This document shows, in pieces, positions 2,530 through 38,192 of a DNA stretch of 64,000 nucleotides (position 1 is its first letter; each line of letters starts with the position of its first letter). Under the pieces are notes generated by a model. The model was not told where the DNA came from. It worked only from the letters and a program-made list of their open reading frames with translations, and made no database searches. Made by a program: the position numbers and the translations under genes. This DNA comes from an uncultured Clostridia bacterium (GTDB lineage: Bacteria; Bacillota; Clostridia; Christensenellales; UBA1242), in NCBI GenBank assembly GCA_946496065.1, contig CAMMFF010000005.1, positions 11,397 to 75,396 of the forward strand, read 5' to 3'.

Positions 2530-2558
2530 TTGACAGTAAATAGGTTTTGCCTTATAAT
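2530..2558 (+). promoter_or_regulatory. consensus sigma-A type promoter
   Basis: TTGACA (2530-2535), 17-nt spacer, TATAAT (2553-2558). Confidence 0.7.
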
Positions 2559-2585
2559 TATAGCAAGATAAACGGAGGTGTTTAT

Positions 2586-8233: not shown

Positions 8234-8869
8234 CTACAAATGATTTATTATTGATTTAACTTCGTCCAACAACTTGGCAATTAGAGAGCCATCAATGGCA
8301 GCATGATTAACTTGAAGAGAAACATTAACCCAGCGCTCACCTTTTTCGTTTATTTTCATTTTGTCAAAGCTAACATGTGGGACAAAAGAGTTTCGTTGAA
8401 CATCTTGCGGATGTGTCATATGCGTAAACTCAAACCAAGGAGCACAAGAAATGTAAGCAATAACTTGACTTCTTCTTGCGTCAAGAGGTAGTGGTTCGGT
8501 GAATGTGGTTTGGTTTTGTAATTTCTTTTTTGTTTCAATGCAAAATTTTTCAATGTCTGAATAATATCTACCGGTTATTATTTTGAAAATTTCTTCACCT
8601 TGTTTCATTGCGCAAATGTTGACAAATTCACCATCTTCAATCACAATTTTGCCCTTGATTGAGCGAATCATGAATTCTTCAAATTTTAAAAATGCAGAAC
8701 AAAAGACGTGACACATACAAAAATAGAAAGATAGACCTTTTGACTTTGCGAATTCATAAACCTTAGACACTTCTAAAGGTGTGCAGAGTGAAATTTGTGG
8801 GATATCAAATTGATAGTATAATTTAAAAATATCCTTTCGGTTCCATGATTCTATATCTAATTCCCTCAT
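8234..8869 (-). CDS. chloramphenicol-acetyltransferase-family protein (function unproven)
   Basis: 211 aa. The C-terminal LQVNHAAIDG aligns to the catalytic HHAVCDG region of type-A CATs. Confidence 0.55.
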   Translation of the reverse strand: MRELDIESWNRKDIFKLYYQFDIPQISLCTPLEVSKVYEFAKSKGLSFYFCMCHVFCSAFLKFEEFMIRSIKGKIVIEDGEFVNICAMKQGEEIFKIITGRYYSDIEKFCIETKKKLQNQTTFTEPLPLDARRSQVIAYISCAPWFEFTHMTHPQDVQRNSFVPHVSFDKMKINEKGERWVNVSLQVNHAAIDGSLIAKLLDEVKSIINHL

Positions 8870-8916
8870 AAAACTTCCTTTTGATATAATATACTACAAA
8901 AGCAAAATTTTTCAAA

Positions 8917-10497
8917 CTATTTTACCAAAACAAAAGACGTAATCAATTTGATTTCTCTTTGCCTCTTATTAATCTCATCTGGTGCGGAGTGAAGGTATAA
9001 GCACGAACCTTGGGTATTAGATAAAGCAGAATATATCTGCTTTTCGGTTTCTATGTTTTCTTCAACTGTGAATTTCGGTTTATCTGGAGAGTTTGTATAG
9101 TTAAACAGAATTACTACTTTATCGTTGTAGAGATATACTGCTCGAACAAAGGTGTTTACAAGTAGTTTGCGTATTTTGATGTCTTTTGTATCTTCAAACA
9201 CTTGCTTTCGTAAAAACTGCTCTATTTCTCCTTTTGTTAAAAGCGAGTTATCTCTATACTTTTCTTTTGTAATTTCTATATCAATTTCTGCAAGTTCATT
9301 TTCAAGTTGTTGTAAGCGAGATTTTGTTAAGTCCGTGATTATTCCTTGCTCAATGGCTTTCAAAATGTTTTGGCTTGCCTTGTAAGTTTCTTTTCTTTTT
9401 TGTTCTAATAGTTTTAAATTGGCATTATCTTGCGAGTGCTTTTGATGATAGTTAAAAATCGCATTTGTTAAGAATTGTATGTTTTGCTCACTGTTTAATA
9501 GTTGGGTGATTGTGTTTATCACCAAATCTTCAAGCTCTTGTTTTTTAATTGCTTTCATAGTGCAAGGATATCTTTTCTTTCTTCGTGAAACACAAACATA
9601 GTAGTAGTGAATATCTTTTGTATGACTTGTTCCACTTTCACCATACATTTTGTGTTTGCATTCTCCACAAATTAGTTTGCCAGAGAGAATATAATCAAAA
9701 ATCTCTTTCTTTCTGCTTGGAGCGAATTTGTTTTCTTCGTTTATTGCATTGACTTTATTCCAAAGATTATCATCAATAATTCGTGGAAAGATTTTGTCAT
9801 ACTTTATGCCATGATGTTCAACAACTCCTGTATATCTTGAATTGTGGAGTATCCATAAAACATATTTCTCATCAAACTTTTTGCCATTATTTCGGTGATA
9901 GCCTAATTCATTCAAAGTTTCAGCAATCACTCTCGCTCTGTAATCACTTGCATACATTTGAAAAACTTTTAAGATTATTTCTTTTTCATATTCGTTTATC
10001 ACATATTTTTTGTTTACAATGTCATATCCAAAAACTTTCTTTCCGCCTGTTGCATTGCCTTTGAGCCAACTTTCACGAAGTCCACGATTTACCTTTTGCG
10101 TAAGTTCTTCGCTGAAATATTGATTGAAGCCTTCAAGTAGTGTTTCCATAAGCGTCCCTTCTGGAGTGTTCGGTATATTTTCCATACAAGATACTAAACT
10201 CACATCATTGTCTTTAAGTGTTTTCTTGTGAATAACACTTTCATATTTGTTCCTACTAAATCTATCAAGTTTGTAAACAAGCACGATTGAGAATTGGTGG
10301 TTTGAACTATCTTTCAACATTTTTTGAAAAGCAACTCGGTTATCGTTTGTTCCTGTCATTGCTCTGTCAATGTAGGTGTCAACAATGACGATACCATTTT
10401 TCTCGGCATAGTCCTTGCAAACGTGAATCTGCCCTTCAATACTTTGCTCAGATTGACTATCCGAACTGTAACGGGCATATATTACTGCTGTTTTCAT
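8917..10497 (-). CDS. large serine recombinase
   Basis: N-terminal resolvase domain (AVIYARYSSDSQSEQSIEGQ), a recombinase domain, a Cys-rich zinc ribbon (CGECKHKMY...CVSRRKKRYPC) and a coiled-coil tail. AAGGAG SD. Confidence 0.9.
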   Translation of the reverse strand: MKTAVIYARYSSDSQSEQSIEGQIHVCKDYAEKNGIVIVDTYIDRAMTGTNDNRVAFQKMLKDSSNHQFSIVLVYKLDRFSRNKYESVIHKKTLKDNDVSLVSCMENIPNTPEGTLMETLLEGFNQYFSEELTQKVNRGLRESWLKGNATGGKKVFGYDIVNKKYVINEYEKEIILKVFQMYASDYRARVIAETLNELGYHRNNGKKFDEKYVLWILHNSRYTGVVEHHGIKYDKIFPRIIDDNLWNKVNAINEENKFAPSRKKEIFDYILSGKLICGECKHKMYGESGTSHTKDIHYYYVCVSRRKKRYPCTMKAIKKQELEDLVINTITQLLNSEQNIQFLTNAIFNYHQKHSQDNANLKLLEQKRKETYKASQNILKAIEQGIITDLTKSRLQQLENELAEIDIEITKEKYRDNSLLTKGEIEQFLRKQVFEDTKDIKIRKLLVNTFVRAVYLYNDKVVILFNYTNSPDKPKFTVEENIETEKQIYSALSNTQGSCLYLHSAPDEINKRQREIKLITSFVLVK

Positions 10498-10594
10498 TTA
10501 TTTTTTCTCCTTTTATTTTATAGATTTCATCTTTCGACAGGGGCGAAACAAACGGAAACGAATTATAGTTTTTGACTTTAAAATCTTTAAACTG

Positions 10595-10634
10595 TTGTCA
10601 AAGGTTGTGAAACAATGCATTTTACCTTTGACAA
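10595..10634. repeat. 40-bp dyad (11-bp perfect arms, 18-bp spacer) upstream of the recombinase gene
   Basis: TTGTCAAAGGT (10595-10605) and ACCTTTGACAA (10624-10634). Confidence 0.8.
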
Positions 10635-10674
10635 GAGTGAGTTTTCGTTTAAACTTCGCACCCGAAAGACTAAT

Positions 10675-10702
10675 CACTTGTATCAAGACAAGCACACGCC
10701 AG
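10675..10702 (+). repeat. copy A of GC-rich repeat (direct with 12291-12317)
   Basis: CACTTGTATCAAGACAAGCACACGCCAG. Identical to copy B except for one extra A. Confidence 0.9.
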
Positions 10703-10817
10703 GGTTGCATTGCCTTTTTTTGTTTTGAATGATTAAACTTAAAATTTCAATGAAAAAATCATTTGAGAGAAACGATAAGTCCAAATCATTCACATTTTCG
10801 ACTTTTAATTTTTGCAT
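10683..10817 (-). CDS. possible 44-aa small protein
   Basis: AAGGAG lies 8 nt upstream of ATG 10817. Translation: MQKLKVENVNDLDLSFLSNDFFIEILSLIIQNKKRQCNPGVCLS. The 3' end lies inside repeat A. Below the ORF-track length cutoff. Confidence 0.3.
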   Translation of the reverse strand: MQKLKVENVNDLDLSFLSNDFFIEILSLIIQNKKRQCNPGVCLS

Positions 10818-11151
10818 TTTCTTAACTCCTTTTTTCTAAAATTTGGAATTAAAAAGACATAGAAAAAAGTTTTTTTTACGCCCATAAATGCAACCACTGG
10901 CTCTTAATTTTTGGCTCAGAGCATACCAATAAAACTAACTTCACGGCTTGCCATTTTGCGTTGTCTAATTTAATTTCAATAAGAGAATAGCACAAATGTG
11001 GTTGTATTGTAAGGAACAAAACTGGTAGTAAACTAGTACTTTTCACATACTTTTTGCAAACAAAGTTGTAGTTTTTGGTAAAAAGTCGCACAATTTTTAC
11101 TATTCTTCTCTATATATAGCCACGAAAATATGTGAAAGTTAAGGCAATATT

Positions 11152-11182
11152 CAAAAAATATTCCACTTTTTATCGTGGAATA
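11152..11182 (-). terminator. intrinsic terminator after the sigma-like gene
   Basis: TATTCCAC / GTGGAATA stem followed by T6 on the minus strand. Confidence 0.55.
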
Positions 11183-11189
11183 CTTGTTT

Positions 11190-11822
11190 TTACATACAAA
11201 GCAAGGAGTATCTATCTTTAAATCTTCTTCTTTGTCTGTAAACTCTGTCAACGCTTATATTTAAAAATTCTGCTATGAGTTTTGGTGCAACTCCGTTGTA
11301 ATAGTATTCAAAGATTTGATATTCAAGTTTGTTTTGTATAATTTTTGATAAGACTTCTTTGACTTTTGTGTAGTCTGGCTTATCTTCAATGGTTGGCTTA
11401 TCCACTGCAAGTTCTAAACATTCTTCTTCGTCTACTGTGTTGTTTGAAAACTTTAATTCTTTTCGTAGATATACTTGCAAAACTCTAAGGCAAGCATTTT
11501 TGAGATTGTCTATCTTTCCAGATTTTGATTTGGAATCTTTGCAAAGTTCACCGAGCTTGTGTCCAATAAATTTGCAAAGAAACAAACTTGCTTCTTGCAC
11601 TAAATCGTAAGCATCTGAATATGAGTCTAACTTCTTGGGATGGCAAATATCTTGTCTTAATAGACATTGCAATCTTTCAACTTTTGGTGTTGCACTGTAT
11701 GCATATTTCTTAATGCTTTTTAATGCACTAAGTGCAAAACATTGAGATAACTTTTCAATGTTTTCTAGAGTGATAACTATGTTATCATCTAAAATTCCTT
11801 TTTTTTCTTTCATTTCTTTCAT
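11190..11822 (-). CDS. sigma-70 region-4-like / HTH protein of mobile-element type
   Basis: C-terminal HTH APKLIAEFLNISVDRVYRQRRRF. AAAGGAG SD. Adjacent to the serine recombinase, as in clostridial integrative elements. Confidence 0.45.
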   Translation of the reverse strand: MKEMKEKKGILDDNIVITLENIEKLSQCFALSALKSIKKYAYSATPKVERLQCLLRQDICHPKKLDSYSDAYDLVQEASLFLCKFIGHKLGELCKDSKSKSGKIDNLKNACLRVLQVYLRKELKFSNNTVDEEECLELAVDKPTIEDKPDYTKVKEVLSKIIQNKLEYQIFEYYYNGVAPKLIAEFLNISVDRVYRQRRRFKDRYSLLCM

Positions 11823-12068
11823 ATATAACTCCTTTTATTTGCCTTTTGGCACAAACAAAAAGAGCATAGTTTGACTGAAAATTTAAAAACATTCAAAATT
11901 TCATTTACAACAAGTCAAGGAAGAAGAAATATATATTTTGTGCAAAGAAAAAAGACTAAGGCAAAACCTTAATCTTAAAAGAAAACTAAAATATATATTT
12001 CCCTTGAATTGTTGTGAGAACTATGCCACAACCACTAGCCAAAAGGCAAAGAAAAGGAGCGGATACAA

Positions 12069-12149
12069 AAAACGGCATCGTAAAAAAATGAGAAGGCGTT
12101 TGGCAAAGAGGGTTTACCCTTGCCAGCCTCTCATTTTAGATGCCGTTTT
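12069..12149 (-). terminator. long nested hairpin; intrinsic terminator for the exonuclease-lipoprotein operon
   Basis: Outer stem AAAACGGCATC / GATGCCGTTTT. Inner stems ATGAGA(A)GGC / GCCTCTCAT and GGCAA..GGGT / ACCCTTGCC. T7 follows the inner stem on the minus strand. Confidence 0.55.
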
Positions 12150-12254
12150 GTTTGCGGAAGTATGTTTTGAATTTTTTTGATTACATATCAAATTCTAGTT
12201 GTGTCAAAGTTTTATTTTTACTGTTTTAGTCCAAAATTGACAAATTTAGTTTTT

Positions 12255-12317
12255 CTGGCGTGTGCTTGTCTGGCGGAGCTTTAGCGACGCCACTTGTTCA
12301 AGACAAGCACACGCCAG
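12255..12317. repeat. 17-bp perfect inverted repeat with 29-nt spacer (right arm lies within copy B of the direct repeat)
   Basis: CTGGCGTGTGCTTGTCT (12255-12271) and AGACAAGCACACGCCAG (12301-12317), with an inner TGGCG/CGCCA pairing. No flanking T-run. Confidence 0.9.
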
Positions 12318-12325
12318 AATCCCAT

Positions 12326-13459
12326 TTAAAGTGCTGAAGCATCTTTAAATTTTATTTGAACTTCTGTTGTTAGATATGCTGTTTCGTTAGTGTTAATTAA
12401 AGTTGCAGTAACTTTACCCACATCATAAGGAGAAAAAGAACTCATACCAAATTCAGGATTTCTGTATGGATCATTTTGTATATTAGCATAAAATGTGTAT
12501 AGAATTTTACCACCTCTATCATAAAAGTGAATTCTTATCATATTATAATTATTTCCACTTATATAGTCATTATAAACTTTTTTTAAATAAAAATCTGTCC
12601 AACCATTTTGATTTTTTTTGTATTGTAATAAAGTTGTAGAATCTATGCCTTGAATTTTATAAGTTTTAAATAAAACAGGATCTGAACTTAAAGCATTATC
12701 ATTGCTATAGTTTATAACAGGGACATCTATTTCTCCTATTTGGTATATCGGTTCATTAAAACAAAAACTATCTGAAATTATATTCCCATAAACATCTTTT
12801 TTAGTAAAAAGTATTTGTTCGTTTTCTACACGAATATTCGTAGGTTCATAGTTTTTTAAAACTGTAGTCGAACAAACCTCACTATCTAAATAAATTTTAT
12901 TATAACTACATGCTTGTATATATAAAGTATTTATTCCAGATATGCACATATCTTTTGTAATTTTTAATTCATATATGTTTTCTACATCATAAACATATTC
13001 ATTATCATTTATTTCAATCTTTATAAAATCTGTATTAGGATTTACTTCTAAAAGTAATGTACCATACTCACCATTATAATTAGATTTAAAATTTTGTAAT
13101 ATTTTAGGGGTGTCTAATTTCGTTAAATTTATATAAAATGGAGAACTATATTCAGAATCTTCATAATTTTTATTATTTGTTCTAGCTTTTACTTTAATAT
13201 TATAATTATATACATGTTCTTCTACGATTAAAGTTGCACTATTAATAAAACTTTCATATTCCTTATCATTAATACTAACAATATATGATGAAGCATTATA
13301 AACAGGATCCCATTGTATTAAATTATCTTCCCAACAAAGATTAGTAGGTGTAGAGAGTTTAATTACATTATCTGGCTGTTGCTCCGCAATATCCCCACAA
13401 CCACAAAAAAACAATGGCATAAATATAAACATAAAAATTAAAGATATGTATTTTTTCAT
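12326..13459 (-). CDS. lipoprotein with Fn3-like repeats
   Basis: Signal peptide ending in the lipobox-like LFFCGC. LSTPTNLCWEDNLIQWDPVYNASSYIVSIND is an Fn3-like signature. Very AT-rich. Confidence 0.65.
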   Translation of the reverse strand: MKKYISLIFMFIFMPLFFCGCGDIAEQQPDNVIKLSTPTNLCWEDNLIQWDPVYNASSYIVSINDKEYESFINSATLIVEEHVYNYNIKVKARTNNKNYEDSEYSSPFYINLTKLDTPKILQNFKSNYNGEYGTLLLEVNPNTDFIKIEINDNEYVYDVENIYELKITKDMCISGINTLYIQACSYNKIYLDSEVCSTTVLKNYEPTNIRVENEQILFTKKDVYGNIISDSFCFNEPIYQIGEIDVPVINYSNDNALSSDPVLFKTYKIQGIDSTTLLQYKKNQNGWTDFYLKKVYNDYISGNNYNMIRIHFYDRGGKILYTFYANIQNDPYRNPEFGMSSFSPYDVGKVTATLINTNETAYLTTEVQIKFKDASAL

Positions 13460-17186: not shown

Positions 17187-18461
17187 ATGGAAAATAAAAT
17201 AGTTGATATTTATGACATTTCTTACGAAGGTTCAGGAGTTGGAAAACTTGATGGGCAGGTTGTTTTTGTGCCAAAAACCTTGAAAGGTGAAAAGGTTGAA
17301 GTTTCAATTGTTAAGAAAAACAAATCTTTTTTGCTTTCGAAGTTGTGCAAAGTGCTTAGCCCAAGCAAGGAGAGAATTAATCCTAAGTGTCCATATTTTG
17401 AAAAATGTGGTGGCTGTGATTTTCAACATTGCAACTATCAAGTTGAACAAAATTTGAAAACCGAAATTTTAAGAAAAGAGATGGCAAAAGTTTGCTATAC
17501 TGGAGAAATTTCTTATCAACCGAGTGAAAGTAGATTCTCTTATCGAAATAAAATCAAGTTGGAATTTTTCAATGGCAAACTTGGTTATTTCAAAAGAAAA
17601 TCTCATTCATTTTTTGATGTTGAGTGTTGTCCTATTGCAACGGAACTGATTAACAAAACCATACCTGTAGTGAAAAGGTTTATTGCTTCAAATGATTGCT
17701 TTGGGCTTAAGAGTGTTTACTTCAAACAACTGCACTGGCATCTTGCAATTTGTTTTTTGTTTGACAAAAAAATGATAAAAAATGCACAAAAAATGATAAA
17801 AAACTTGAAAAATGTCGAAATTTTTGGTGATTTTTCAATTTATTTTGCATTTGGAGAGATTTTGGAAAGTGATTTGACAAAGATTTTTTGCGTGAAACAA
17901 GGAAACGAACTTAAGCAAGTCTATGATGAGATTGTCTTTGAATTTGATGTTTCTTCTTTCAATCAGGTCAATGATGAAATGGCAAAGAAATTGTATGATT
18001 ATGTTTCGTGCAACGTTGATGGGAAAAGGGTCGTTAATGCTTATTCAGGACAAGGACTTTTGACATACATTTTGTCCAGAAACGCAAAATTTGTGTATGG
18101 AATTGAATATCAAAAATCAGCACACATGAGTGCAGAAAAGATGAAAGAACAACTGCAAGAATACAAAATTGAAAATGTTTGTGGAAGAGTTGAAGATGAG
18201 ATTCCAAAAATTTTTAGAAGGGACAAAATTGATTTTGTTGTGCTTGATCCATCAAGAGAAGGGTGTGAACGCTCTGTTTTGAGTGAGATTAATCAAAGTG
18301 GTGTTGAAAAAATTGTGTATGTTTCTTGCAACTTTTCAACTTTGGTTAGAGATTTGAAAATTTTGAAAGATTTTTATGATATTGTGAGTGTCAAAATTTT
18401 TGATATGTTTCCTTGCACTGCGAATATGGAAACAGTCGTTATTTTGGGAAGAAAAGCATGA
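17187..18461 (+). CDS. rlmD: 23S rRNA (uracil-5-)-methyltransferase RlmD/RumA family
   Basis: TRAM-like N-terminus, 4Fe-4S Cys cluster (CPYFEKCGGCDFQHC), SAM-MTase core, and a C-terminal FDMFPCT catalytic Cys region. Confidence 0.8.
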   Translation: MENKIVDIYDISYEGSGVGKLDGQVVFVPKTLKGEKVEVSIVKKNKSFLLSKLCKVLSPSKERINPKCPYFEKCGGCDFQHCNYQVEQNLKTEILRKEMAKVCYTGEISYQPSESRFSYRNKIKLEFFNGKLGYFKRKSHSFFDVECCPIATELINKTIPVVKRFIASNDCFGLKSVYFKQLHWHLAICFLFDKKMIKNAQKMIKNLKNVEIFGDFSIYFAFGEILESDLTKIFCVKQGNELKQVYDEIVFEFDVSSFNQVNDEMAKKLYDYVSCNVDGKRVVNAYSGQGLLTYILSRNAKFVYGIEYQKSAHMSAEKMKEQLQEYKIENVCGRVEDEIPKIFRRDKIDFVVLDPSREGCERSVLSEINQSGVEKIVYVSCNFSTLVRDLKILKDFYDIVSVKIFDMFPCTANMETVVILGRKA

Positions 18462-18538
18462 TTTTTTGTTGATCTTTTTGATTGGTTTTAAACTAAAAAA
18501 GTGCCACATATAATATTTAAAAAAATTTAACTATTTTA

Positions 18539-18567
18539 TTGACATAAATTTTTGACTATGTTATCAT
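18539..18567 (+). promoter_or_regulatory. promoter of the 18.7-26.2 kb operon
   Basis: TTGACA (18539-18544), 17 nt, TGT-TATCAT (18562-18567). Confidence 0.5.
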
Positions 18568-18675
18568 ATAAATTGAAATCATATATAGTGAAATTTTAAC
18601 TGAAATTGAAGGTAAAAAATATATGATAATAGATTGAATTTGAGGTTGTCTGTGACACTTTTTAATAAGAAGATT

Positions 18676-19611
18676 ATGGGTTATATTTTGATTTTTGCCA
18701 TCGCAGTGATGACAGGCCTTGCTGTCGGCAAAATTTATGTTGATAACTTGGAAGCACCTTCAACAGTAAGTGCGGAAGAATCTTCGCTGAGAGAAGCTGA
18801 AGCAACAATCAAAGAATGGGTTGATAGAGCAGAAAAAAGAGAAGAAAGTGGTGAGTCTATTGATTCTTTCACGGTTGTTCAGCTTTACAATATTGCCGAA
18901 TATAAACTCACTCATTCTGAAGATTATTATTCTGGAAAGTTTTTCAAACTTATGACCGGAGTTGTTAATGCTCCTATGGGGATTAAACAGCAAATGAGAA
19001 GTGAGAAAATTTATGACAATGGAACTTTCCTTTATAACAAATTGAGTCCTTCCACTTCAAGTTTGGCACCTGCAATTTGTTCAAGAGTTGTTTATGACAA
19101 AAATTCTGGAGTGATCAAAATCAATCCAAAAGGAACATTTGATGAAGGTGCAGATGTTATCACAGGCATTTTTGACAAAAACAATTATGATGAATATACA
19201 TTGGAAGAGTATAAATCAATTTTCAACACTGAGCCTTCCACCGTTATGCCTTACATCATTTCAACGATAACTTGTGGACAAAACAAAGTTGGTCCTGTGA
19301 CAAAAAATGCAGATGGGACATATTCTTTCAGCATTGCAATCGACGGTGATTATCTTGCTTTGGCTGCTCTTTATTATTCTTATGAAATTAAGTTTTCAAG
19401 TGGTATGGCAGACCCTCCAAAGTGGATTTCTTTGAATATGAATGTAACTATTGATGAGAATTTCAATTTCGTTGGCATTGATTATACTGAAGTTTACAAA
19501 ATGAATGTTTCTGGAATCGGCATGATGACAGTTACTGATGAGTTTTCTGATCAGTTCTTCTTTGGAGAAGATGCTCCAGAAATTGGTGATGAGATCAAGG
19601 AGGTGTTATGA
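18676..19611 (+). CDS. orphan membrane-anchored protein (311 aa)
   Basis: N-terminal helix ILIFAIAVMTGLAVGKIYV. Its stop TGA overlaps the ATG of the giant gene. An alternative TTG start lies at 18634. No family recognised. Confidence 0.7.
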   Translation: MGYILIFAIAVMTGLAVGKIYVDNLEAPSTVSAEESSLREAEATIKEWVDRAEKREESGESIDSFTVVQLYNIAEYKLTHSEDYYSGKFFKLMTGVVNAPMGIKQQMRSEKIYDNGTFLYNKLSPSTSSLAPAICSRVVYDKNSGVIKINPKGTFDEGADVITGIFDKNNYDEYTLEEYKSIFNTEPSTVMPYIISTITCGQNKVGPVTKNADGTYSFSIAIDGDYLALAALYYSYEIKFSSGMADPPKWISLNMNVTIDENFNFVGIDYTEVYKMNVSGIGMMTVTDEFSDQFFFGEDAPEIGDEIKEVL

Positions 19612-22600
19612 TGGAAGAACCTATCAGAAAACACCATGATCTATTTCCTCGTATGTTTAAGGTGTTCACACTTTATTTCGTGATTACACTTTCTGTTTTC
19701 TTTGGCTACGTGCAAATCTTTGGTGATGTTAAGCCAAATGTTATCACCATTCCAACTGATGACGCAGACGCAGAAAATGACACGTTGTTTGGGCAGTTTG
19801 TTGAAAAAATTGCAGAATTTGAAAATATTGATACGGACTTTGATTTGACGTTGGAAAACCCTGATTTCAGTTTGTCTGCTCAAGGAAATGTTGTCTTTGA
19901 CATGGGCATGGGGAACATGTCTCTTGATGTTGATTTGATTTATAATCAACAAAATTTTGACGTGCAAGTTTCTTATGTTTCACCAAATGTTTATTTATCT
20001 ATTGATGACAGCACTTACAAATTTGATGCTTCAGGTGACTTTGACTTGAGTTCTTTGCTTGATTTTGTGATGAACAATATTGAAATTGACCCAAGTTTTA
20101 TTGAAAGCATTGAAAAGTTTTTGGGTTTTGATTTGACTGATTTTGATCCAAACACATTGCTCACCAAACTTAAAATTGAGGAAAGTCAAAACGAAGAAAA
20201 TGGAGACATTACATTCGTTATTGGGCTGGGCAATATCAGTGCAAGAATGGTTTGTGACACAGAGTTCAACATCAAATCAATCAAGTTGAAGGACATTTTG
20301 GTTGCCGGTAACACAGTGAAATTTGGTGCAAACGTCAACAGAATGAACAAAGATGATGTTGTGGTTGAATACACAGAAACTGGTGACGAAATTGATATGT
20401 CCGGCATCACTCTTTACACCAATTACGCTCAAAATATGTTTGTTAATGATTTTGTGGTGTCAAATGTTGCAATCAGTGTTGATGACAAGACTTATTATGC
20501 AAATGTATATCTTGATAATTCAAATTCTACAAAAGTGAAAGTTGAAACTTCTTTGGAAGGAATTGATGTTTCATTGGTTTACTCCGATAATGTCATTTAT
20601 GCTGATGTTGCAAGCTTGAAGTTGAGTTTTAATGTTGAAGATTATTCTGTTTGGGAAAGCACTATCAATGAGATTTTTGAAAAATATACATCAAAAACTG
20701 TTTCTCAAATTGTTTCTGATTTGATTTCTCAGTATATTGGAATCAATGGAGAAAACATTGATGTTCAACAAGTTATGTTGCAAATTTTGGGTGGCGTGTT
20801 TGATAATGCTGAAAGCATTTCTGATTATCTGCCTTCATCAACTGAAATGACAGAAAATGCCTTTTCAATGACTTGGAACAATGGACTTATAATCAATTTA
20901 AACAGCAATGACAATCAACTTACTGGTTTGAATGTGACATTTGACAAAGTTGACATAGATGCAAACTTTGAGATTGTAGAAAATGGATTTGAAATTGCTG
21001 GAGATTATTATGACTTGTCAAATTTGCTTCCACTTTCAGATGTTGTAGATGACATTTTGGGAGCGGAACAGTTTGGTGGTCAAGCAAAAATCACAATAGA
21101 TGGCTTCGTTATTGATGTAAATTATGTAGTTGATTTTTCAAATGGAATATTGGCAAAGATTTCAACACAGATTTTTGGTGAAAACATTTCAATTTACATC
21201 AACAACAACCAAATTTTCTTTGAAGTTGGAGAGATCGTTGTTGAAGGCAATATTGATGATTTGGAGAATTATATTGCAAGAATTGACAGCATCTTTGGAT
21301 TCAACCTGGCAGAACAGATTGGAAATTCAAATGTTGAGATTGACATTGAAAGATTGATTAAAAGACTATCTGAAATTTTGAATGAGTTGAAATTGGTTGA
21401 ATCAGAGGGAGTGATTGCATTGATTGAATATTTGTCAAATAAGGCTTATATTTCAATTGATGGAAATAATGTTGTTCTAACTTTTGAAAATCAAACAATT
21501 TCTGCTGAAGCTTATGTTGGTGCGACCAATGAAACAATCATTCTTCCTTCTGCAACTGACAACACTGATGATGTTTTGAACAAGATAGAAAATGTTAAGA
21601 ATTACATTGAAACAAAACAATATGCTTTTGAGTTTGTTGTTTCTTATGAAGAATTATATCTTTCTGGCGCCATTCAAATAGATTTGAAAAACAACACTTT
21701 TGCGATTTATGATGTTGTAATTGGTGGGAACAAATTATCAATCAAGTATGCGGACAACACTGCGTATGTTGATTATGCTGATTTAAAATTCAAGTTGCAA
21801 ACTGAGAATTTGATGCAAATTTTTGACATCATAAATTCAATTTTGAAAGCGAATGGAATGAACGAAAGCGTTGACATTTCATCTGCTTTGACTGAAATTT
21901 TTGGAGAAGATGTAAGCGAATTATCGTTGCAAGAATTTTTGGCATTGATTGAGATTGATGTTGCAGGAAGTCTTGACGAACTTAAGCTTGATCTGAAAAT
22001 TAATTCTGAAAATGTTGTTCATGCAACTGGAAACATTAGTTTTGTTGATGATATGATTGACAGCATAGACCTGCTTGTTAATGGCAAAATCAACATGACC
22101 CTTAATGTTGTTCCTTTTGAAACTTATGAAATTTCGGATGCGGAATATTACAATTTGACAAGTGCAAACAAAGGAACTGTCACATTGTCATATCAAAAAG
22201 ATGACGAAAAGGTTGATGTTGTTGCAAATGTCGAAATTGATTTGACGGATAAGATTTATGTTAAACTTTCAACAAAAGTTTTGAATGAAAAGTTTGAACT
22301 TACAATTTACAATAATATGCTTTATGCTCAAATTGGAAAGTTGTGTTTTGCTACAAACTTTGAAAACGCAAAAGAACTTTATGACTATATTGTTGATTTA
22401 TTTGCCGTAACCATTCCTGAAATTGACATTGAGAATGTTTTAAAAGATGTTGGCTTGAATTCTGTAAACATTTTTGACATTGCTGGCTTGAATATTTTTG
22501 GCGACAACGAAAAGTTGCAGGTTGAATATGTCATCAATGACAATTTGAAAGTTGCATTGAATTTGCTTGATGAGCAAACAATCGAAGAAATTTCTGTTCC

Positions 22601-25600
22601 TGAACAATATGAAGACTTGAAAGTGCTTTTGCCAAAAATAAAGTCTTTGATTGATTATGTTCAGAGAGGAGTTTTTGAATTTGATTTCAGTCTTGCATAC
22701 AACACTTTGACCTTTGACGGAACATTTAAATATTTTGATGGCAATTTTGAAATTTCAAACATGATTGCATTTGGAGAAAATATCTTTGTCAGATTGCAAG
22801 ATGGAACATTGTATTTTGCGTTTGGCAACATGAAACTTAAATTTGATTTGACAAATGCGTCAACATCAAATGTTGACATTTTTGAAGCAATAAACAAAAT
22901 TACCTCTGACTCATTTGGTGTTGTTATTGATTTCGGTGTCTTTGAAGAGTTGCTCAACATTATTAATACTTACACTTTGGAAGATTATTTAAACAAGATT
23001 GACTTGGATATTTCTGGAAATTCTGACTTGATCAATGTTGTCATTTCAAACAAGAAAGAATATTCAGTTTCTAAAATTTTGAGCGCAGAAATTGGATTTG
23101 CCACAAATGATGTTAAAAACATTAATTTAAGCATCTATGACGTCATCAAAGCACAACTTTCTTTGAGAAAAACTGATGTTTCAACAATTTCTGAATTTGA
23201 TGATGAAGACTATCAAGACTATTCCGAAAACTTTGTAGATGGTGTTTTGGATAGTTTGAGAGTTGAAGATGGCGTTTATGCATTTAACAGTGACATTGCA
23301 ATAAGATATAGCAACAACCAATTCTATGGCGAACTGGTGGCAATGCTTGTTGAAAGTGAAAATGGCGTTGTTGGGAATTATATGCCAGCGGTTTCTCTTT
23401 ACACCACATCACTTGGTCTTAACAGTTATATCTATTTGATTGGAAAAGATATCTATGTTGACATCAATGGTTTGCAGGTGACAGCTGATTTGAGTGAAAC
23501 AACAATTAATGAAATCATTGATTTTGTTGAACAAAACTTTGGATTGTCATTGACTGGAAATGCTGAAATTTTGGAAACAACAACAGAAGCGTTTAAAGTT
23601 ATTTTACCTGCTCTTGACAGCATCTATGGCTCTTGGATTTCTGGAGATATTGGTGGTGGACTTCAGATTGATATAAACAGCGATTTGTGGTATGCAGAAA
23701 ATGCAAGATTTTATGATATCGTTGTTCAAGCTTTTGTTCAAAACCTTGAAAATATAATTGTGCCAACAAAACTTGTTTTGGGTGCAAACATCGAAGATGA
23801 AAACACTGAAGTTTATGATGATTACAGTGAATATTGGTTGAAAGATGGAGATGTTGTTATTGAAGATGTTGCAACAAGAGATTTGAATTTTGCTGTTTAT
23901 TTGAACAACATTTCAGTTGGCAGATTTGTTAATGATCTTGGAGCAACTTTCATTGGCGGAGAGAATGGGTTCAAAGAAATTGTTGGAGTTAGGTCAAATT
24001 ATGGTTCAAGCTTGCTTACAGATTTCAATTCATACAAAACTTTGTTAAATTTTGTTGAAACAGTTTATGACTACGCAATGACATATCAATATGGTGTTGA
24101 TGTGACAGGAACAATTGTTTCTGACAGTTCAACAATTGAGATAACAAGGGGAGATGTTTATTTTGAAGTTGGAGATTTGCCAGAAGGACAGACAACTCAA
24201 TTTGAATTTATTGAAGGCAAATCAATCAATCTTCAAGGTGGGTTCACAATCATAAACAATGGATCATCATTCTCAATTGATTTGATGTATGAAAGTTTGA
24301 AATCAAATGATATCTATTTGACATATTCTTTGACAGACACAAACAAATTCCGTGCAAAAATCAATGATTCAAGTTTTGAAGATATTCTCAGAGTCATTCA
24401 AAAAGTTTTAGGCTCACAAGGTGATGATTTGCAAGACAGTATCACGCAAATTGATCAGATTTTAAGTTCAATTACAAACTTAACTCAAGTCTTCAAAGAA
24501 ATTAATTTGAAATCCGACGAACAGACAGGACAAACAATTCTTCAAATTAAGTTGGACATTGAAGGAAACGGAGACTGCGGAATTGTCAAAGTTGTTCTTG
24601 GCGAAGATGCTGATGGAACGAGCAAATTGAAGAAGATATCAATTTCTGATTTGACGATTGCTGGAAACACAATCAATCTTGAAATTAATGTAAATAATTC
24701 TCGTGATGAAGCTTTTGATTATCTGGCAGAAAATCCAGCTGATAAACATATTGATTTTTCTGGCGCAAACGAACTTATTAATGCTTTGGTTAATACTTCT
24801 GAGTTGAATTATTATGAAATTGATGGAAGTTTGAATATCAACGGAAATTTGGTTGGAATCAACATCAATTGGAATGTTCCAATCAATGTCAAAATCAAAC
24901 TTGATGAAGAAAGAAAACCTGAAGTTATGGCAGTTATTGGAGAGATTCCTGCCGTAATTGGAATCAATAATGACGTGCCTTATGAATTTGGTGACACAGA
25001 AAGTGGCTCAGGAAGAATGCTCTATATCTATTATAAAGATGGATATGTTTACTTCTACAGAACAGAATATGTGGACATAATGTTTGGTGCTTCAAAGCGT
25101 CAATATGAAAAGAAACTTAAGGTTTCAATTGAAGAAGTTTTGAGTGATCCATTGAAATATGTTCAATACGGAATTGGCTTTACTGACATGATTATTGAAG
25201 CAATTCAAGCTTCATTGGATTTGGCAAAAGGACACACTCCAGATCTTGGAAATGTCGTAAAATCATTCACTGCAAATGATTCTCAGAATTTCAGTGTTGT
25301 GCTTAACATGGCAGAAATTACGAATGACCCTAAACTTGACACAATGTCAATTGGCTTGAGTGTTGTCAATAATGAGGCGACTGGCAACAAGAATTACATT
25401 GGAAAGGCAACATTCAATATGTTTATGCCACTTGCAGATATCTTTGAAATGACCCTCGAAAGCAACGATTTGGTGCTTAAGGACATCGGAAAAGAACTTG
25501 ATTTTTCTGCACTTTACGAATTTGTTGATTCTTACACATACAATGAAGGGGCACAATGGCAAGCTTCAAATGGTGAGTGGGAATTAGCGAGTGAAACTCT

Positions 25601-26186
25601 GTACAAAATTTCATTCAAAGAAAATGGTGGTGCCGAATTTGAAGATATTGTTCAAGCTGCAGGAACACAGATAACTTTGCCAACTTACAGCGAAAACTTG
25701 ATTGTTAATGATATTGAAAACAACACCAAGTATGTTTACGAATTTGCGGGTTGGTACACCACAGAAACGTTTGATGAAAACACAAGGTTTTCTGCAGATA
25801 CAATGCCTCGAACAAACACCGTCCTTTACGCAAAGTGGAATTTGATAGATACAATTGTGACACATTATTACACATTGTCGTTCAATGTGAATGGTGGAAA
25901 TGAAACTTACGGTGATGTGAGTGTTGCAGAAAATACAGTGTTTGATTTGAGCAGTTATGTTCCAACAAAAAACACTGAATACGTCGATAAAGGTTACAAC
26001 TGGGTTGGTTCAAACGCAGGAAAATGGACGTATGAAGTCACACGCTACACTTTCGCAGGTTGGTACACTGACAGCAATTATTCTCAGAAATTTGACGGAA
26101 CGATGCCAAGTGAAAACCTTACACTTTATGCAAAGTGGGAAGCAACGACGACAACTGAATATTATTACAATTGGGAAAGACCATAA
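19608..26186 (+). CDS. giant (2192 aa) membrane-anchored repeat protein with two C-terminal Listeria/Bacteroides-type (Flg_new-like) repeats
   Basis: AAGGAGG at 19597-19603. N-terminal TM (FKVFTLYFVITLSVFFGYVQIF). About 8 periodic modules. C-terminal F.GWY...MP...LYAKW repeats at nt ~25602-26142. Confidence 0.85.
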   Translation: MMEEPIRKHHDLFPRMFKVFTLYFVITLSVFFGYVQIFGDVKPNVITIPTDDADAENDTLFGQFVEKIAEFENIDTDFDLTLENPDFSLSAQGNVVFDMGMGNMSLDVDLIYNQQNFDVQVSYVSPNVYLSIDDSTYKFDASGDFDLSSLLDFVMNNIEIDPSFIESIEKFLGFDLTDFDPNTLLTKLKIEESQNEENGDITFVIGLGNISARMVCDTEFNIKSIKLKDILVAGNTVKFGANVNRMNKDDVVVEYTETGDEIDMSGITLYTNYAQNMFVNDFVVSNVAISVDDKTYYANVYLDNSNSTKVKVETSLEGIDVSLVYSDNVIYADVASLKLSFNVEDYSVWESTINEIFEKYTSKTVSQIVSDLISQYIGINGENIDVQQVMLQILGGVFDNAESISDYLPSSTEMTENAFSMTWNNGLIINLNSNDNQLTGLNVTFDKVDIDANFEIVENGFEIAGDYYDLSNLLPLSDVVDDILGAEQFGGQAKITIDGFVIDVNYVVDFSNGILAKISTQIFGENISIYINNNQIFFEVGEIVVEGNIDDLENYIARIDSIFGFNLAEQIGNSNVEIDIERLIKRLSEILNELKLVESEGVIALIEYLSNKAYISIDGNNVVLTFENQTISAEAYVGATNETIILPSATDNTDDVLNKIENVKNYIETKQYAFEFVVSYEELYLSGAIQIDLKNNTFAIYDVVIGGNKLSIKYADNTAYVDYADLKFKLQTENLMQIFDIINSILKANGMNESVDISSALTEIFGEDVSELSLQEFLALIEIDVAGSLDELKLDLKINSENVVHATGNISFVDDMIDSIDLLVNGKINMTLNVVPFETYEISDAEYYNLTSANKGTVTLSYQKDDEKVDVVANVEIDLTDKIYVKLSTKVLNEKFELTIYNNMLYAQIGKLCFATNFENAKELYDYIVDLFAVTIPEIDIENVLKDVGLNSVNIFDIAGLNIFGDNEKLQVEYVINDNLKVALNLLDEQTIEEISVPEQYEDLKVLLPKIKSLIDYVQRGVFEFDFSLAYNTLTFDGTFKYFDGNFEISNMIAFGENIFVRLQDGTLYFAFGNMKLKFDLTNASTSNVDIFEAINKITSDSFGVVIDFGVFEELLNIINTYTLEDYLNKIDLDISGNSDLINVVISNKKEYSVSKILSAEIGFATNDVKNINLSIYDVIKAQLSLRKTDVSTISEFDDEDYQDYSENFVDGVLDSLRVEDGVYAFNSDIAIRYSNNQFYGELVAMLVESENGVVGNYMPAVSLYTTSLGLNSYIYLIGKDIYVDINGLQVTADLSETTINEIIDFVEQNFGLSLTGNAEILETTTEAFKVILPALDSIYGSWISGDIGGGLQIDINSDLWYAENARFYDIVVQAFVQNLENIIVPTKLVLGANIEDENTEVYDDYSEYWLKDGDVVIEDVATRDLNFAVYLNNISVGRFVNDLGATFIGGENGFKEIVGVRSNYGSSLLTDFNSYKTLLNFVETVYDYAMTYQYGVDVTGTIVSDSSTIEITRGDVYFEVGDLPEGQTTQFEFIEGKSINLQGGFTIINNGSSFSIDLMYESLKSNDIYLTYSLTDTNKFRAKINDSSFEDILRVIQKVLGSQGDDLQDSITQIDQILSSITNLTQVFKEINLKSDEQTGQTILQIKLDIEGNGDCGIVKVVLGEDADGTSKLKKISISDLTIAGNTINLEINVNNSRDEAFDYLAENPADKHIDFSGANELINALVNTSELNYYEIDGSLNINGNLVGININWNVPINVKIKLDEERKPEVMAVIGEIPAVIGINNDVPYEFGDTESGSGRMLYIYYKDGYVYFYRTEYVDIMFGASKRQYEKKLKVSIEEVLSDPLKYVQYGIGFTDMIIEAIQASLDLAKGHTPDLGNVVKSFTANDSQNFSVVLNMAEITNDPKLDTMSIGLSVVNNEATGNKNYIGKATFNMFMPLADIFEMTLESNDLVLKDIGKELDFSALYEFVDSYTYNEGAQWQASNGEWELASETLYKISFKENGGAEFEDIVQAAGTQITLPTYSENLIVNDIENNTKYVYEFAGWYTTETFDENTRFSADTMPRTNTVLYAKWNLIDTIVTHYYTLSFNVNGGNETYGDVSVAENTVFDLSSYVPTKNTEYVDKGYNWVGSNAGKWTYEVTRYTFAGWYTDSNYSQKFDGTMPSENLTLYAKWEATTTTEYYYNWERP

Positions 26187-26188
26187 TA

Positions 26189-26225
26189 AAAAGAAGTTTC
26201 TTTCACGTAACTTCTTTTTATTTTA
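26189..26225 (+). terminator. intrinsic terminator
   Basis: AAAAGAAGTT / AACTTCTTTT stem followed by a T-rich tail. Confidence 0.65.
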
Positions 26226-26339
26226 TTATTCTTCTGTATCATTCATTGTGGTTGAATTTTTGACAAGGAAGATAATTTTGTTGTCTTTTTATTTTTAATG
26301 CAAAAACAATGGCGAGCAAGAATAAGGTTAAAAGAGAGA

Positions 26340-26368
26340 AGAGAAAGAAAAAAGAGCATTTAGCTCTT
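26340..26368 (-). terminator. weak terminator overlapping the metG stop
   Basis: AAGAGC / GCTCTT stem followed by TTTTTCTTTC on the minus strand. Confidence 0.4.
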
Positions 26369-28087
26369 TAAATCTTGAATATCGAATGGATGTGACAGTT
26401 CTTGCTTATATCTTTCAATGATTTCATCGTCAAGACGAGCAAAAAGTGGTTTAGGCAAGTTTACTTTGTGAGACTTTGAAATGTTGATTTTGCTTGCTTC
26501 TTCCCACATATCTTGTGCATCTGGACGGCCTTCAAAGTTCAGTTGTTCTGTCCAAATTTCAGCTGTTTTGTTAGGGATTATTGGGCTGGCAACAATTGCA
26601 AGAGCTTTTGCCATATTAAGGCAGAGATAAAGCACTTTCTTTGCACCATCGATGTCTCCATTTTTAATCAATGACCATGGTGCGGTTTTTTCAAGATAGG
26701 TGTTTCCAATGCTTGCAAACCTCATAATTTCCTTATATGCCATTCTGAATTCTGTTTTTGAGAACAGTTCTCCAATTTGGTCAGGGAGAGTCTTGATTGC
26801 TTCAATCATTTCATTGTCGTTTTCATCAAGTGAGTTCTTGATATTATCATAATCAATCTCAAGAGCGCCACCAAAATTTTTGTTGATCATGTTCAATGTT
26901 CTGTTGAAGAAATTTCCATATTTCCCAACAAGTTCAGCATTTGTGTTGAGTTTGAAACCTTCATATGTGAAATCGCTATCTTTGTTTTCTGGGAAGATAG
27001 AAACAAGGTAAGCACGCAAAGCATCAATATCAATATCACTGTTCATTAAATTGTTGCAGAAAATTCCGATTTTCTTAGATTTTGAGAATTTTTGACCTTC
27101 AAAGTTGAGGAAGTTGAAACCAACAACATTTTCTGCCAAGTTATATTTCTTGCAAGCAAGCTCCATGCTTGGGAAGAAAATTGCATGGAAGTCGATGTTA
27201 TCTTTGCCAATAAAGTTGTAGATTTTGCAATCTTTGTTTTGCCATCTGTCTTTGACCATTTCATCTCCACCAAGTTCCTTTGTGATTGAGATGTAGCCAA
27301 TTGGTGCGTCAAACCAAACATAGAACACTTTGTCTTGATAATCTTTCAATGGCACTTGAATACCCCAAGGAATATCTCTTGTGATGCAACGAGGTTTCAA
27401 TCCTTCTTTAAACCATTTGTTTGTCATGCTGTAAACATGTGGGCGCCATACATCTTTTTTGCTTTCCACCCATTTTTGAAGTTCAGGTTGAATTTTGTCT
27501 AATGAAACATAGATATGTTTTGTTGATTTTTTAACAGCATCTTTTCCACAAAAACTGCATTTTGGAGACTTCAAGTCGTCAAGTTCGTAGGTTTTTCCAC
27601 ATTGGTCGCATTGGTCGCCATAAGCCTTTTCATATCCACAATATGGACAGGTTCCATAAACAAATCTGTCGGCCAAAGCAATTTTGTCATGTTCACAATA
27701 GAGCATTGTGCTTTCTTTTTCAACTGTGTAGCCGTTTTTATAGATTTCGTTGAAGAAATCTACTGTTGTTTCTTTGTGTGTTTCTGTGTTTGTTCCACTG
27801 AATTTATCAAAACTAATGCAGAGTGTTTCTGCAATTTCTTTGATTTTGGTATTCATTGTGTGAATAAATTCTTCAGGTTTCATTCCAATTTCTTTGGCAG
27901 AGATGAAACTTGCAGTTCCATAATCGTCAGTTCCGCTGACATAAATGACATCATTTCCTTTTGTTCTGTTGTAACGAGCAAACACATCTCCAGGGAGCCA
28001 GCAGCCAACAACATGACCCAAATGTGGAAGCCCATTGACATAGAGCAGTGCAGATGTGACTAATATTTTTTCCTTTTTACTTTCCAT
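26360..28087 (-). CDS. metG: methionine--tRNA ligase
   Basis: HLGH (HIGH), KFSKS (KMSKS) and the zinc knuckle CPYCGYEKAYGDQCDQCG. ATG 28087 has AGGAAG 7 nt upstream. Confidence 0.9.
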   Translation of the reverse strand: MESKKEKILVTSALLYVNGLPHLGHVVGCWLPGDVFARYNRTKGNDVIYVSGTDDYGTASFISAKEIGMKPEEFIHTMNTKIKEIAETLCISFDKFSGTNTETHKETTVDFFNEIYKNGYTVEKESTMLYCEHDKIALADRFVYGTCPYCGYEKAYGDQCDQCGKTYELDDLKSPKCSFCGKDAVKKSTKHIYVSLDKIQPELQKWVESKKDVWRPHVYSMTNKWFKEGLKPRCITRDIPWGIQVPLKDYQDKVFYVWFDAPIGYISITKELGGDEMVKDRWQNKDCKIYNFIGKDNIDFHAIFFPSMELACKKYNLAENVVGFNFLNFEGQKFSKSKKIGIFCNNLMNSDIDIDALRAYLVSIFPENKDSDFTYEGFKLNTNAELVGKYGNFFNRTLNMINKNFGGALEIDYDNIKNSLDENDNEMIEAIKTLPDQIGELFSKTEFRMAYKEIMRFASIGNTYLEKTAPWSLIKNGDIDGAKKVLYLCLNMAKALAIVASPIIPNKTAEIWTEQLNFEGRPDAQDMWEEASKINISKSHKVNLPKPLFARLDDEIIERYKQELSHPFDIQDLKS

Positions 28088-36902: not shown

Positions 36903-37001
36903 TTATATCATATATAGGGAGAAAAAACAATTTGTTTGGTGCATATTTTTGCTAAAATTTTGACAAAATTTGGACTGAAAAAAGAAAAATAAGGTTTGAT
37001 A

Positions 37002-37030
37002 TTGACAAAGCAAAAAAAGCGTGTTATAAC
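37002..37030 (+). promoter_or_regulatory. promoter of the Fic-like gene
   Basis: TTGACA (37002-37007), 17 nt, TGT-TATAAC (37025-37030). Confidence 0.5.
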
Positions 37031-37049
37031 ATCTATATTCGAGGTAAAA

Positions 37050-38192
37050 ATGAAGGCAATAAAGATAAAAAAATTTTTAAAACAAGATGAACAAGAAAGA
37101 TTGGCATTCAATCGCAGATTTGCTCGTGTAACACATGATTTAGGTGAAGAAGGTGTCGAACCTTGGATTCTTTATAGGGACAAAACCACGGTTTTTGTAA
37201 ATGGAAGGGCAAAGAAAAAACATAAATTTTCAAGTTTTTATTGCTTTGAAGAAAGAGATTATTCTGAATTAAACAAATTGCTAAACAGAATTAATCAAAA
37301 GATAGAAATGGTAAGAAAAACCGTGAAAAGAGGCGAAAAAATTGACAAAGTTGAAGATATTATGCGAGGAGTTATCTATGAAGTGAACAAAAATCAAGAT
37401 AGCGAATGTTACAAAGCCAATCAACTTTATAAAAAGAGTGTCAAAAAATATGTAAAAAAAATTTTTGAATATTATCAATCGCATCCATTTGATTCAAGTG
37501 AATGCTCTCGTATGTGGCTTCAGGCATATAGAGAAATGGTTGAGCAATCACAATTTCAAGAATTTGATGATGTAATAAAAAAGAATTATTTGACATTTGA
37601 TACAGCATTTCAATTTATTTTTGATTATGGATATTTCAGAAAGTATGACAAAACATCAGCGGAAGATTATTTAAATTTCATAATGGATACGTATGCCTTG
37701 GCTTCAAATAATGAATATCCAACCTATAGAGATTGCACTGCACGCATAAGAAATGGAAGTTGGATTCCTGTAAATCAAGAAATTATAAGAGAGGGTATGG
37801 AGATTTTGACTGATTGGTTTACAAATGATGTAAAAAGCAATAATCTTTATCCAATTGAAAGAGCATGCATTATGCATTGTGAACTTGTTAGGATGCAGGC
37901 ATTCCCTGACGGAAATCATAGAATTGCGAGATTGATAGCAAATGAAACTTTGATTGAATCTGATTTCCCATCAATTTCAATTGATTTTGACAAAAGAAAG
38001 GAATATAACGCCGCAACAAATAAGGCGATTGAAACTCATGAAATTGATGATTTGATTGAAATATACTATCAACAAGCATATCAAAATGCTTTAAAGATAG
38101 ATAGGTGTTTGGACAGTTTGATTCAAAAAGAAGATGAGAAGAATGAAAGTAGAGAGACAAAACAGCCAGTATCATTAGAAAAACAACCATAA
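37050..38192 (+). CDS. Fic-domain protein with a degenerate active-site motif
   Basis: Fic core ...HCELVRMQAFPDGNHRIARLIANE. The motif reads QxFxDGNHRxxR instead of HxFx(D/E)GNGRxxR (nt 37896-37931). GAGG SD. Confidence 0.7.
   Translation: MKAIKIKKFLKQDEQERLAFNRRFARVTHDLGEEGVEPWILYRDKTTVFVNGRAKKKHKFSSFYCFEERDYSELNKLLNRINQKIEMVRKTVKRGEKIDKVEDIMRGVIYEVNKNQDSECYKANQLYKKSVKKYVKKIFEYYQSHPFDSSECSRMWLQAYREMVEQSQFQEFDDVIKKNYLTFDTAFQFIFDYGYFRKYDKTSAEDYLNFIMDTYALASNNEYPTYRDCTARIRNGSWIPVNQEIIREGMEILTDWFTNDVKSNNLYPIERACIMHCELVRMQAFPDGNHRIARLIANETLIESDFPSISIDFDKRKEYNAATNKAIETHEIDDLIEIYYQQAYQNALKIDRCLDSLIQKEDEKNESRETKQPVSLEKQP

Follow-up and report, generated by a model that had tools for sequence, protein, structure and literature searches.

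Introduction

In Gram-negative bacteria, LolA and LolB are two proteins of one fold, an unclosed beta-barrel with helices, and one of the two is fixed at the membrane. Transfer from LolA to LolB is mouth-to-mouth (PMC13078400). In mycobacteria, LprG and LppX are lipid-carrying lipoproteins, and LprG is described (PMC6519032, PMC10576003) as a membrane-tethered carrier of glycolipids and triacylglycerides that is encoded in a conserved two-gene operon. Here, we describe a two-gene locus with proteins of this fold class in a 64,000-nucleotide stretch of DNA, referred to as the window, from an uncultured Clostridia bacterium (contig CAMMFF010000005.1, assembly GCA_946496065.1). The first gene encodes a protein with a single domain (the partner) and the second encodes a very large modular protein (the giant).

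Our preferred reading, which we hold tentatively and at a little less than an even chance, is that the pair is a conserved operon of a clade of gut Clostridia with reduced genomes (Christensenellales, around UBA1242). It would build an apparatus at the cell surface that combines a target-binding tip, a string of carriers for hydrophobic ligands, and a membrane-proximal acceptor. We infer these functions, docking and ligand carriage, from the predicted fold and the genomic context. What is new, and robust, is an unannotated and clade-restricted pair with a tandem array in a known fold class and a swappable tip. Literature searches for LolA-like domains in tandem, or for giants related to this one, brought up no relevant work.

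A Coupled Gene Pair with N-Terminal Membrane Helices

The pair consists of two overlapping open reading frames (ORFs) on the same strand, the partner (18634/18676..19611, +) and the giant (19608..26186, +; 2192 residues). The TGA stop of the partner (19609–19611) overlaps the ATG of the giant, which gives an ATGA stop/start at 19608–19611. An earlier sequence-only reading of the window had reported this overlap and an AAGGAGG at 19597–19603, and reading of the junction bore out both. It had also given the partner 311 residues. That ORF is real, and its length is probably 319 residues, starting from the GTG at 18652 (MTLFNKKIMGY...). The alternative starts are a TTG at 18634 and an ATG at 18676. 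The GTG is favored because it fits the N-termini of 27 aligned homologues and has a GAGG 7 nucleotides upstream. This start adds lysines, and hence positive charges, ahead of the hydrophobic helix of the partner.

Each protein has a single hydrophobic segment, located at the N-terminus, in a Kyte–Doolittle scan with a 19-residue window. The scan found no hydrophobic segments elsewhere in either protein, as had been claimed earlier. A lipobox was not found in either; both begin with a long hydrophobic helix. The helix of the partner carries a conserved G14xxxG18 motif in which G18 is invariant, and T13, G14, I20, Y21, and V22 are conserved in at least 90% of 28 sequences. The helix of the giant is preceded by R7, K8, R15, and K18, and its residues V30, F31, F32, G33, and Y34 (VFFGY) are invariant in 16 sequences. 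These invariant residues are consistent with retained membrane anchors in both proteins, which possibly pack together. The bodies of the two proteins would presumably face outward.

In the ectodomain of the partner (window 18928–19575), at least 90% of 28 homologues keep C135 and C200, and many aromatic positions are invariant. This pattern points to a possible disulfide and to a possible pocket lined with aromatic residues. The cysteine content of the giant is only 0.1%.

The Giant Is a Chain of Homologous Modules

Self-BLASTP of the giant gave no off-diagonal matches, and the identity between modules is only 13–22%; profiles were therefore needed. These were built from 17 family members, and pairs of modules were compared by hhalign. 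The giant contains at least seven homologous modules of around 185 residues. Modules M2 to M6 match one another with scores of 44–133 (E values of 3e-6 to 2e-21), M7 (residues 1131–1317) matches M5 (E 1.5e-9), and M1 matches M2 (E 3.4e-5). Among 180 column-shuffled controls, the highest score was 25.2 (E 0.0036). The strongest similarities are between modules that lie two apart, at an offset of approximately 350–380 residues, which suggests the duplication of a two-module unit.

The sequence-only reading had proposed about eight periodic modules marked by a recurring signature of strand, turn, strand, and helix. The periodicity stands, with E values far beyond the shuffled null and at least seven modules; the eighth instance, near residue 1567, is marginal (E 2.6e-4). 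A module-like stretch absent from that list, residues 1657–1816, matches M2 with an E value of 3e-6. In the AlphaFold2 (AF2) model described below, the signatures at residues 127, 328, 534, 717, 903, and 1066 all fall on the last hairpin of a six-strand block, with the helix next. The signature at residue 1280 lies inside the supported module M7. Hidden Markov models (HMMs) of the module and of the partner revealed no paralogues among the other ORFs of the window.

Both Proteins Are Predicted to Share the LolA-Like Half-Barrel Fold

The AF2 model of the giant covers residues 1–1200 and was built with 16 sequences. Its predicted local distance difference test (pLDDT) score is 71 and its predicted template modeling (pTM) score is 0.42. 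After the N-terminal helix (residues 12–37), the model shows a pattern of approximately 185 residues that consists of 5–6 strands, one helix, six strands, and 2–3 helices. The strand lengths taper inside each block (10, 10, 8, 8, 6, and 6 residues), and the confidence falls in the helical linkers, every ~185 residues. A Foldseek search of the Protein Data Bank (PDB) with this model gave matches with a probability of 1.00 to RseB/MucB, LolA of many species, LolB, and LprG bound to phosphatidylinositol mannoside (PIM). The target-normalized template modeling (TM) scores of the LolA, LolB, LprG, and RseB matches run from 0.3 up to 0.51 over around 200–220 columns. The top two matches (neurexin) and the sliding clamps had TM-scores below 0.12 and were dismissed as generic matches between multi-domain beta arrays.

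The model of the partner is of higher confidence (pLDDT 90.9, pTM 0.85). It matched LolA, LprG (target-normalized TM-score 0.49), LolB, VioE, and SAOUHSC_02783 with a probability of 1.00 and EPDR1 with 0.99; Csa1 was also matched. LprG gave the best TM-scores for both models, 0.49–0.51. We assign the modules of the giant and the partner, at the level of predicted fold and with borderline TM-scores, to the LolA/LolB/LprG/RseB half-barrel class. Members of this class have an unclosed antiparallel beta-barrel of ~11 strands whose concave face is covered by helices, and the predicted modules, with 5–6 plus six strands and their helices, agree with this layout. The profile of the partner showed no homology to any segment of the giant (E≥0.019). 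The two proteins are therefore alike at the fold level only.

The sequence-only reading had likened the giant to repeating-beta-groove bridge proteins of the AsmA/TamB/YhdP type. In such proteins, which include VPS13, repeating units form one continuous hydrophobic groove. There are real likenesses. TamB, YhdP, and VPS13 are also giant, N-terminally anchored, periodic, and beta-rich, with possible long-distance lipid transfer, and the order of elements is similar: an N-terminal helix comes first, and then blocks made up of five to six strands and a helix recur periodically. However, the Pfam families AsmA, AsmA_2, DUF748, DUF3971, and TamB (DUF490) are unmatched at E≤1 in the giant of the window and in 16 family members. 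No AsmA-, TamB-, or VPS13-type protein is present among the 50 best PDB matches from Foldseek, which place the giant in another fold class. The strand taper, the dips in confidence at the linkers, and the pTM score of 0.42 are more readily explained by separate domains than by a single uninterrupted sheet. A second membrane is not expected in Clostridia, and this also counts against such a bridge. It is the least supported reading, and we regard it as very improbable. What survives of the earlier lipid-handling idea is the class of hydrophobic-ligand carriers, now by way of the LolA, LolB, LprG, and RseB matches; the groove fold itself is not supported.

The Pair Is Conserved Across One Clade

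A word-indexed search returned 29 matches to the giant. A profile search of 1.84 billion representatives returned 248 giant-family clusters, nearly all of 1.5–4.3 thousand amino acids (kaa). All are from metagenome-assembled genomes (MAGs) of Clostridia, and those that carry a name are annotated only as "hypothetical protein" or "InlB B-repeat-containing protein". The partner has 43 homologues; none has a functional name, and no Pfam match was found for them.

Synteny was read in six contigs that carry homologues of the giant and in 34 GTDB species loci retrieved by the profile of the partner, 33 of which were readable. The gene order is constant. A trmA-like gene is followed by the partner and the giant, and next come metG, hisS, a uvrD-like gene, and gyrA on the opposite strand. 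A large ORF directly follows the partner in 32 of the 33 readable species loci, which belong to one uncultured gut Clostridia clade, and the overlap is 1 or 4 nucleotides in 24 of the 33. The sequence-only reading had proposed to check whether the two genes stay adjacent in related genomes; they do. Its picture of an elongated, periodic, N-terminally tethered giant with a dedicated and translationally coupled partner is supported. Given the housekeeping flanks with their fixed synteny, we rejected an origin from a mobile element or a defense system, and PHROGs and PADLOC models gave no match at E≤0.01.

Identity to the window across the loci is 77–98% for methionyl-tRNA synthetase (MetRS), 26–91% for the partner, and 25–94% for the body of the giant. 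By these ranges, the partner and the giant both evolve quickly. Both are nevertheless under purifying selection; against the closest relative, the ratio of nonsynonymous to synonymous substitution rates (dN/dS) is 0.12 (giant) and 0.11 (partner).

Some of the loci are labeled Ca. Caccovivens, and the MetRS encoded there is 82% identical to that of the window. Ca. Caccovivens has been placed in the GTDB family UBA1242, order Christensenellales (PMC8035907). Genomes of UBA1242 are mostly smaller than 1 Mb and are without lipid, amino-acid, or nucleotide biosynthesis or standard transporters; they retain sporulation genes. The members have been proposed to be obligate symbionts or parasites with many uncharacterized membrane proteins (PMC12306168). 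Judged by MetRS identity and synteny, the window probably belongs to this clade.

A Variable Array and an Exchangeable Tip

Homologues of approximately 1.5 kaa keep the N-terminal ~450–600 residues and the sequence from around residue 860–990 on, and their middle modules are missing. Homologues of 2.6–3.2 kaa carry extra modules. As read from these alignments, modules in the middle of the array are gained and lost from species to species, giving giants of 1.5–3.2 kaa. The best-conserved stretch of the family is at residues ~1200–1400; column conservation is 0.59–0.73 over residues 1201–1450 and is lower towards the tip.

The distal part of the giant has a history of its own. Homologue P0004 is ~80% identical over residues 1–1400 and ~25% identical beyond, and in 100-residue windows its identity drops from 92% (start 1201) to 82% (start 1301) and 47% (start 1401). 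The reverse is seen in P0002, P0003, and P0005, in which the body is 42–70% identical and residues 1700–1990 are 82–87% identical. More distant proteins share the tip only. Judged by these identity patterns, the C-terminal ~750 residues, including two Listeria–Bacteroides repeats, are a cassette that is exchanged independently of the body.

The two repeats match PF09479 (Flg_new) in two stretches (3e-18; 66.1 bits, curated cut-off 27) and TIGR02543 (1.9e-11; 44.1, curated cut-off 20.95). Pfam and NCBIfam match just the last ~190 residues of the giant, and the earlier claim that only the C-terminal end belongs to a recognizable family holds. The repeats are bona fide members of the class found in InlB B-repeat surface proteins, and one relative has been so named by NCBI. 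Unlike in those proteins, the repeats make up less than 10% of the giant, and they are missing in many homologues. The end domains vary among 16 homologues, with Flg_new in seven and SHIRT in six.

These observations bring in a plain surface adhesin as the main rival explanation. The LolA-like modules would be rigid spacers that project a variable tip, the partner would be an anchoring or assembly factor, and there would be no ligand. The variable, adhesin-type end domains and the swapping of the tip independently of the body are as expected from an adhesin, and a module number that varies between ~1.5 and 3.2 kaa is stalk-like. The giant is also very acidic and fast-evolving relative to MetRS. 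However, no known adhesin-stalk or S-layer repeat family of Pfam matches the body. The C-terminus of the giant (...YAKWEATTTTEYYYNWERP) has no LPXTG motif or hydrophobic tail as a sortase signal, and no wall-binding domain was found; the anchor is instead the N-terminal helix with its invariant residues. It would be unusual for an adhesin to come with a separately encoded single-domain protein that shares its fold class and is strictly conserved along with it, and purifying selection acts on the body and not on the tip alone. We consider a plain adhesin somewhat unlikely. The novel adhesin that the sequence-only reading offered as its alternative is in part borne out, in that the distal third is a swapped cassette with adhesin-type repeats; the match to a known stalk family is missing.

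Features of the Locus and Neighboring Genes

The features of the locus are collected in Table 1. The promoter-like site is the top sigma-70-type match in positions 18400–26500, with 11 of 12 consensus positions and an extended –10 element. The hairpin past the giant was not reported by the consensus scan; its stem is too poor in G–C pairs and its loop is too long.

Table 1. Positions of the features of the gene pair in the window (aa, amino acid residues).
Feature	Position	Strand	Description
Promoter-like site	18539..18567	+	TTGACA, 17-nt spacer, TG-TATCAT; sigma-70-type consensus match only
Partner gene	18652..19611	+	N-terminal helix, then one predicted LolA/LprG-like domain; probable start
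Partner membrane helix	18679..18744	+	aa 2-23 (numbered from ATG 18676); hydropathy scan and AF2 helix 2-23
Coupling junction	19597..19611	+	Shine-Dalgarno AAGGAGG (19597-19603), tgtt, ATGATG
Giant gene	19608..26186	+	ORF, 2192 aa
Giant signal-anchor helix	19662..19724	+	aa ~19-39; hydropathy scan, AF2 helix 12-37
Module M1	19785..20168	+	aa 60-187; partial, six strands plus helices (AF2)
Modules M2-M7	20169..23627	+	Each 5-6 strands, helix, 6 strands, 2-3 helices (AF2)
Module limits			M2 aa 188-410, M3 411-594, M4 595-780, M5 781-960, M6 961-1130, M7 1131-1340
End of conserved body	23628..23954	+	aa ~1341-1449
Exchangeable distal region	23955..25601	+	aa ~1450-1998; contains module-like 1657-1816
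Two Listeria-Bacteroides repeats (Flg_new / TIGR02543)	25602..26144	+	aa 1999-2180
AT-rich hairpin	26190..26228	+	Perfect 9-bp stem aaagaagtt/aacttcttt, 10-nt loop, T-rich tail, just past giant stop

Other genes of the window were also read. A 1703-residue ORF (window 44950–50061, –) has an N-terminal aldo/keto reductase domain (residues 31–313) as its only family match. Its remaining ~1400 residues have no Pfam match and are unrelated to the modules of the giant. An 840-residue ORF without a Pfam match (window 2547–5069, +) lies two genes downstream of the DNA polymerase III delta gene, and in another locus (L003, 1298–3811) a similar 837-residue gene, with no recorded Pfam match, lies in the same place. 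A gene of the chloramphenicol acetyltransferase (CAT) family adjoins a large serine recombinase with Resolvase, Recombinase, and zinc-ribbon domains (window 8234–10497, –), and the GC skew switches sign at ~8–14 kb of the window. This may be an integrated element with a resistance-type gene. The locus L001, too, has a CAT gene upstream of the pair. A gene for a Fic/DOC-domain protein (window 36996–38192, +) lies between gyrB and a tRNA-Met gene.

Discussion

A pair of same-fold proteins with one membrane-fixed member suggests a hand-over from carrier to acceptor as in LolA and LolB. The present pair has no sequence similarity to these proteins, and in place of a soluble monomeric LolA there is a tethered chain of at least seven modules. 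The proteins are anchored by transmembrane helices and not by lipid anchors, no LolCDE-type transporter is encoded nearby, and the host is of the Clostridia type. With LprG, the pair shares a membrane tether and a conserved two-gene operon in addition to the structural match. However, LprG is a single lipoprotein domain that is paired with the major facilitator superfamily (MFS) pump Rv1410, whereas here the second protein is of the same fold and there is no adjacent pump.

In the apparatus that we favor, the tip of the giant would dock on a target surface, for example, another cell or a particle. The modules would bind hydrophobic molecules (lipids or acyl chains) and pass them along the chain, either to or from the cell membrane. 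If extended, a chain of at least seven modules would be tens of nanometers long. The partner may be kept beside the anchor of the giant through the conserved transmembrane motifs and, as an acceptor close to the membrane, would play the part that LolB has for LolA. A more specific version is a previously unreported machine for lipid acquisition, in which a tethered "bucket brigade" of LolA-like carriers would take lipids from the membrane of another cell to a LolB-like acceptor in the bacterium's own membrane. It would serve a lipid-auxotrophic, partner-dependent Firmicute and would carry an exchangeable recognition tip. We consider this version unlikely.

Several points weigh against the carrier apparatus. 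The fold similarity is moderate, with target-normalized TM-scores of 0.4–0.5 and root-mean-square deviations of 7–10 Å, and the model of the giant, with its pTM score of 0.42, covers residues 1–1200 only. The Pfam families of the LolA clan (LolA, LolB, LppX_LprAFG, MucB_RseB, DUF4367, and related families) are unmatched at E≤1, and profile searches of PDB sequences were empty. No transporter gene is adjacent to the pair in the window or in the six homologue contigs. A plain adhesin stalk would just as typically show a variable number of modules and a swapped tip of the adhesin type. The UBA1242 membership and the lipid auxotrophy of the organism of the window are both inferred from its relatives. 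One locus (L020, MAG SRP141132_co3_356) has an intact partner and no giant at the locus; the giant may have been lost or relocated, or the assembly may have collapsed here. The order there (9959–13016) is the partner, an 88-residue ORF, and metG.

The fold can also have a non-lipid role in Clostridia. GerS of Clostridioides difficile, a spore-forming member of the class, has a LolA-like fold without sequence similarity and activates the amidase CwlD (bioRxiv 10.1101/2025.01.13.632879). The fold alone is therefore no proof of lipid transport. By analogy with GerS and RseB, the half-barrels could be a protein-interaction scaffold or regulator that binds and controls envelope enzymes or signaling proteins, for example, in cell-wall remodeling or sporulation, and not a lipid carrier. 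RseB/MucB is among the top Foldseek matches, GerS is a case in which the fold was recruited to enzyme activation, and the UBA1242 genomes have kept their sporulation genes. However, none of the loci read, the window and the six homologue contigs included, has a gene for an amidase or an anti-sigma factor or a sporulation gene next to the pair. GerS is small and dimeric, unlike the giant, and a chain of ~2000 residues with a swapped tip is hard to square with a stoichiometric regulator. This explanation is improbable in our view.

The pair takes up ~7.5 kb of a genome of ~1 Mb and is kept across nearly the whole clade, and its predicted fold class is known for the carriage of lipids and acyl chains. 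As a mere adhesin, the giant would still define an unannotated family of 248 clusters, nearly all of which are giants. If the carrier apparatus is correct, the principle of LolA-type carriers would be extended to a tethered multi-module chain in a lineage of the Gram-positive type. The pair is a concrete candidate for attachment and lipid uptake in bacteria that are unable to make their own lipids, and the swappable tip may mark host or partner specificity.

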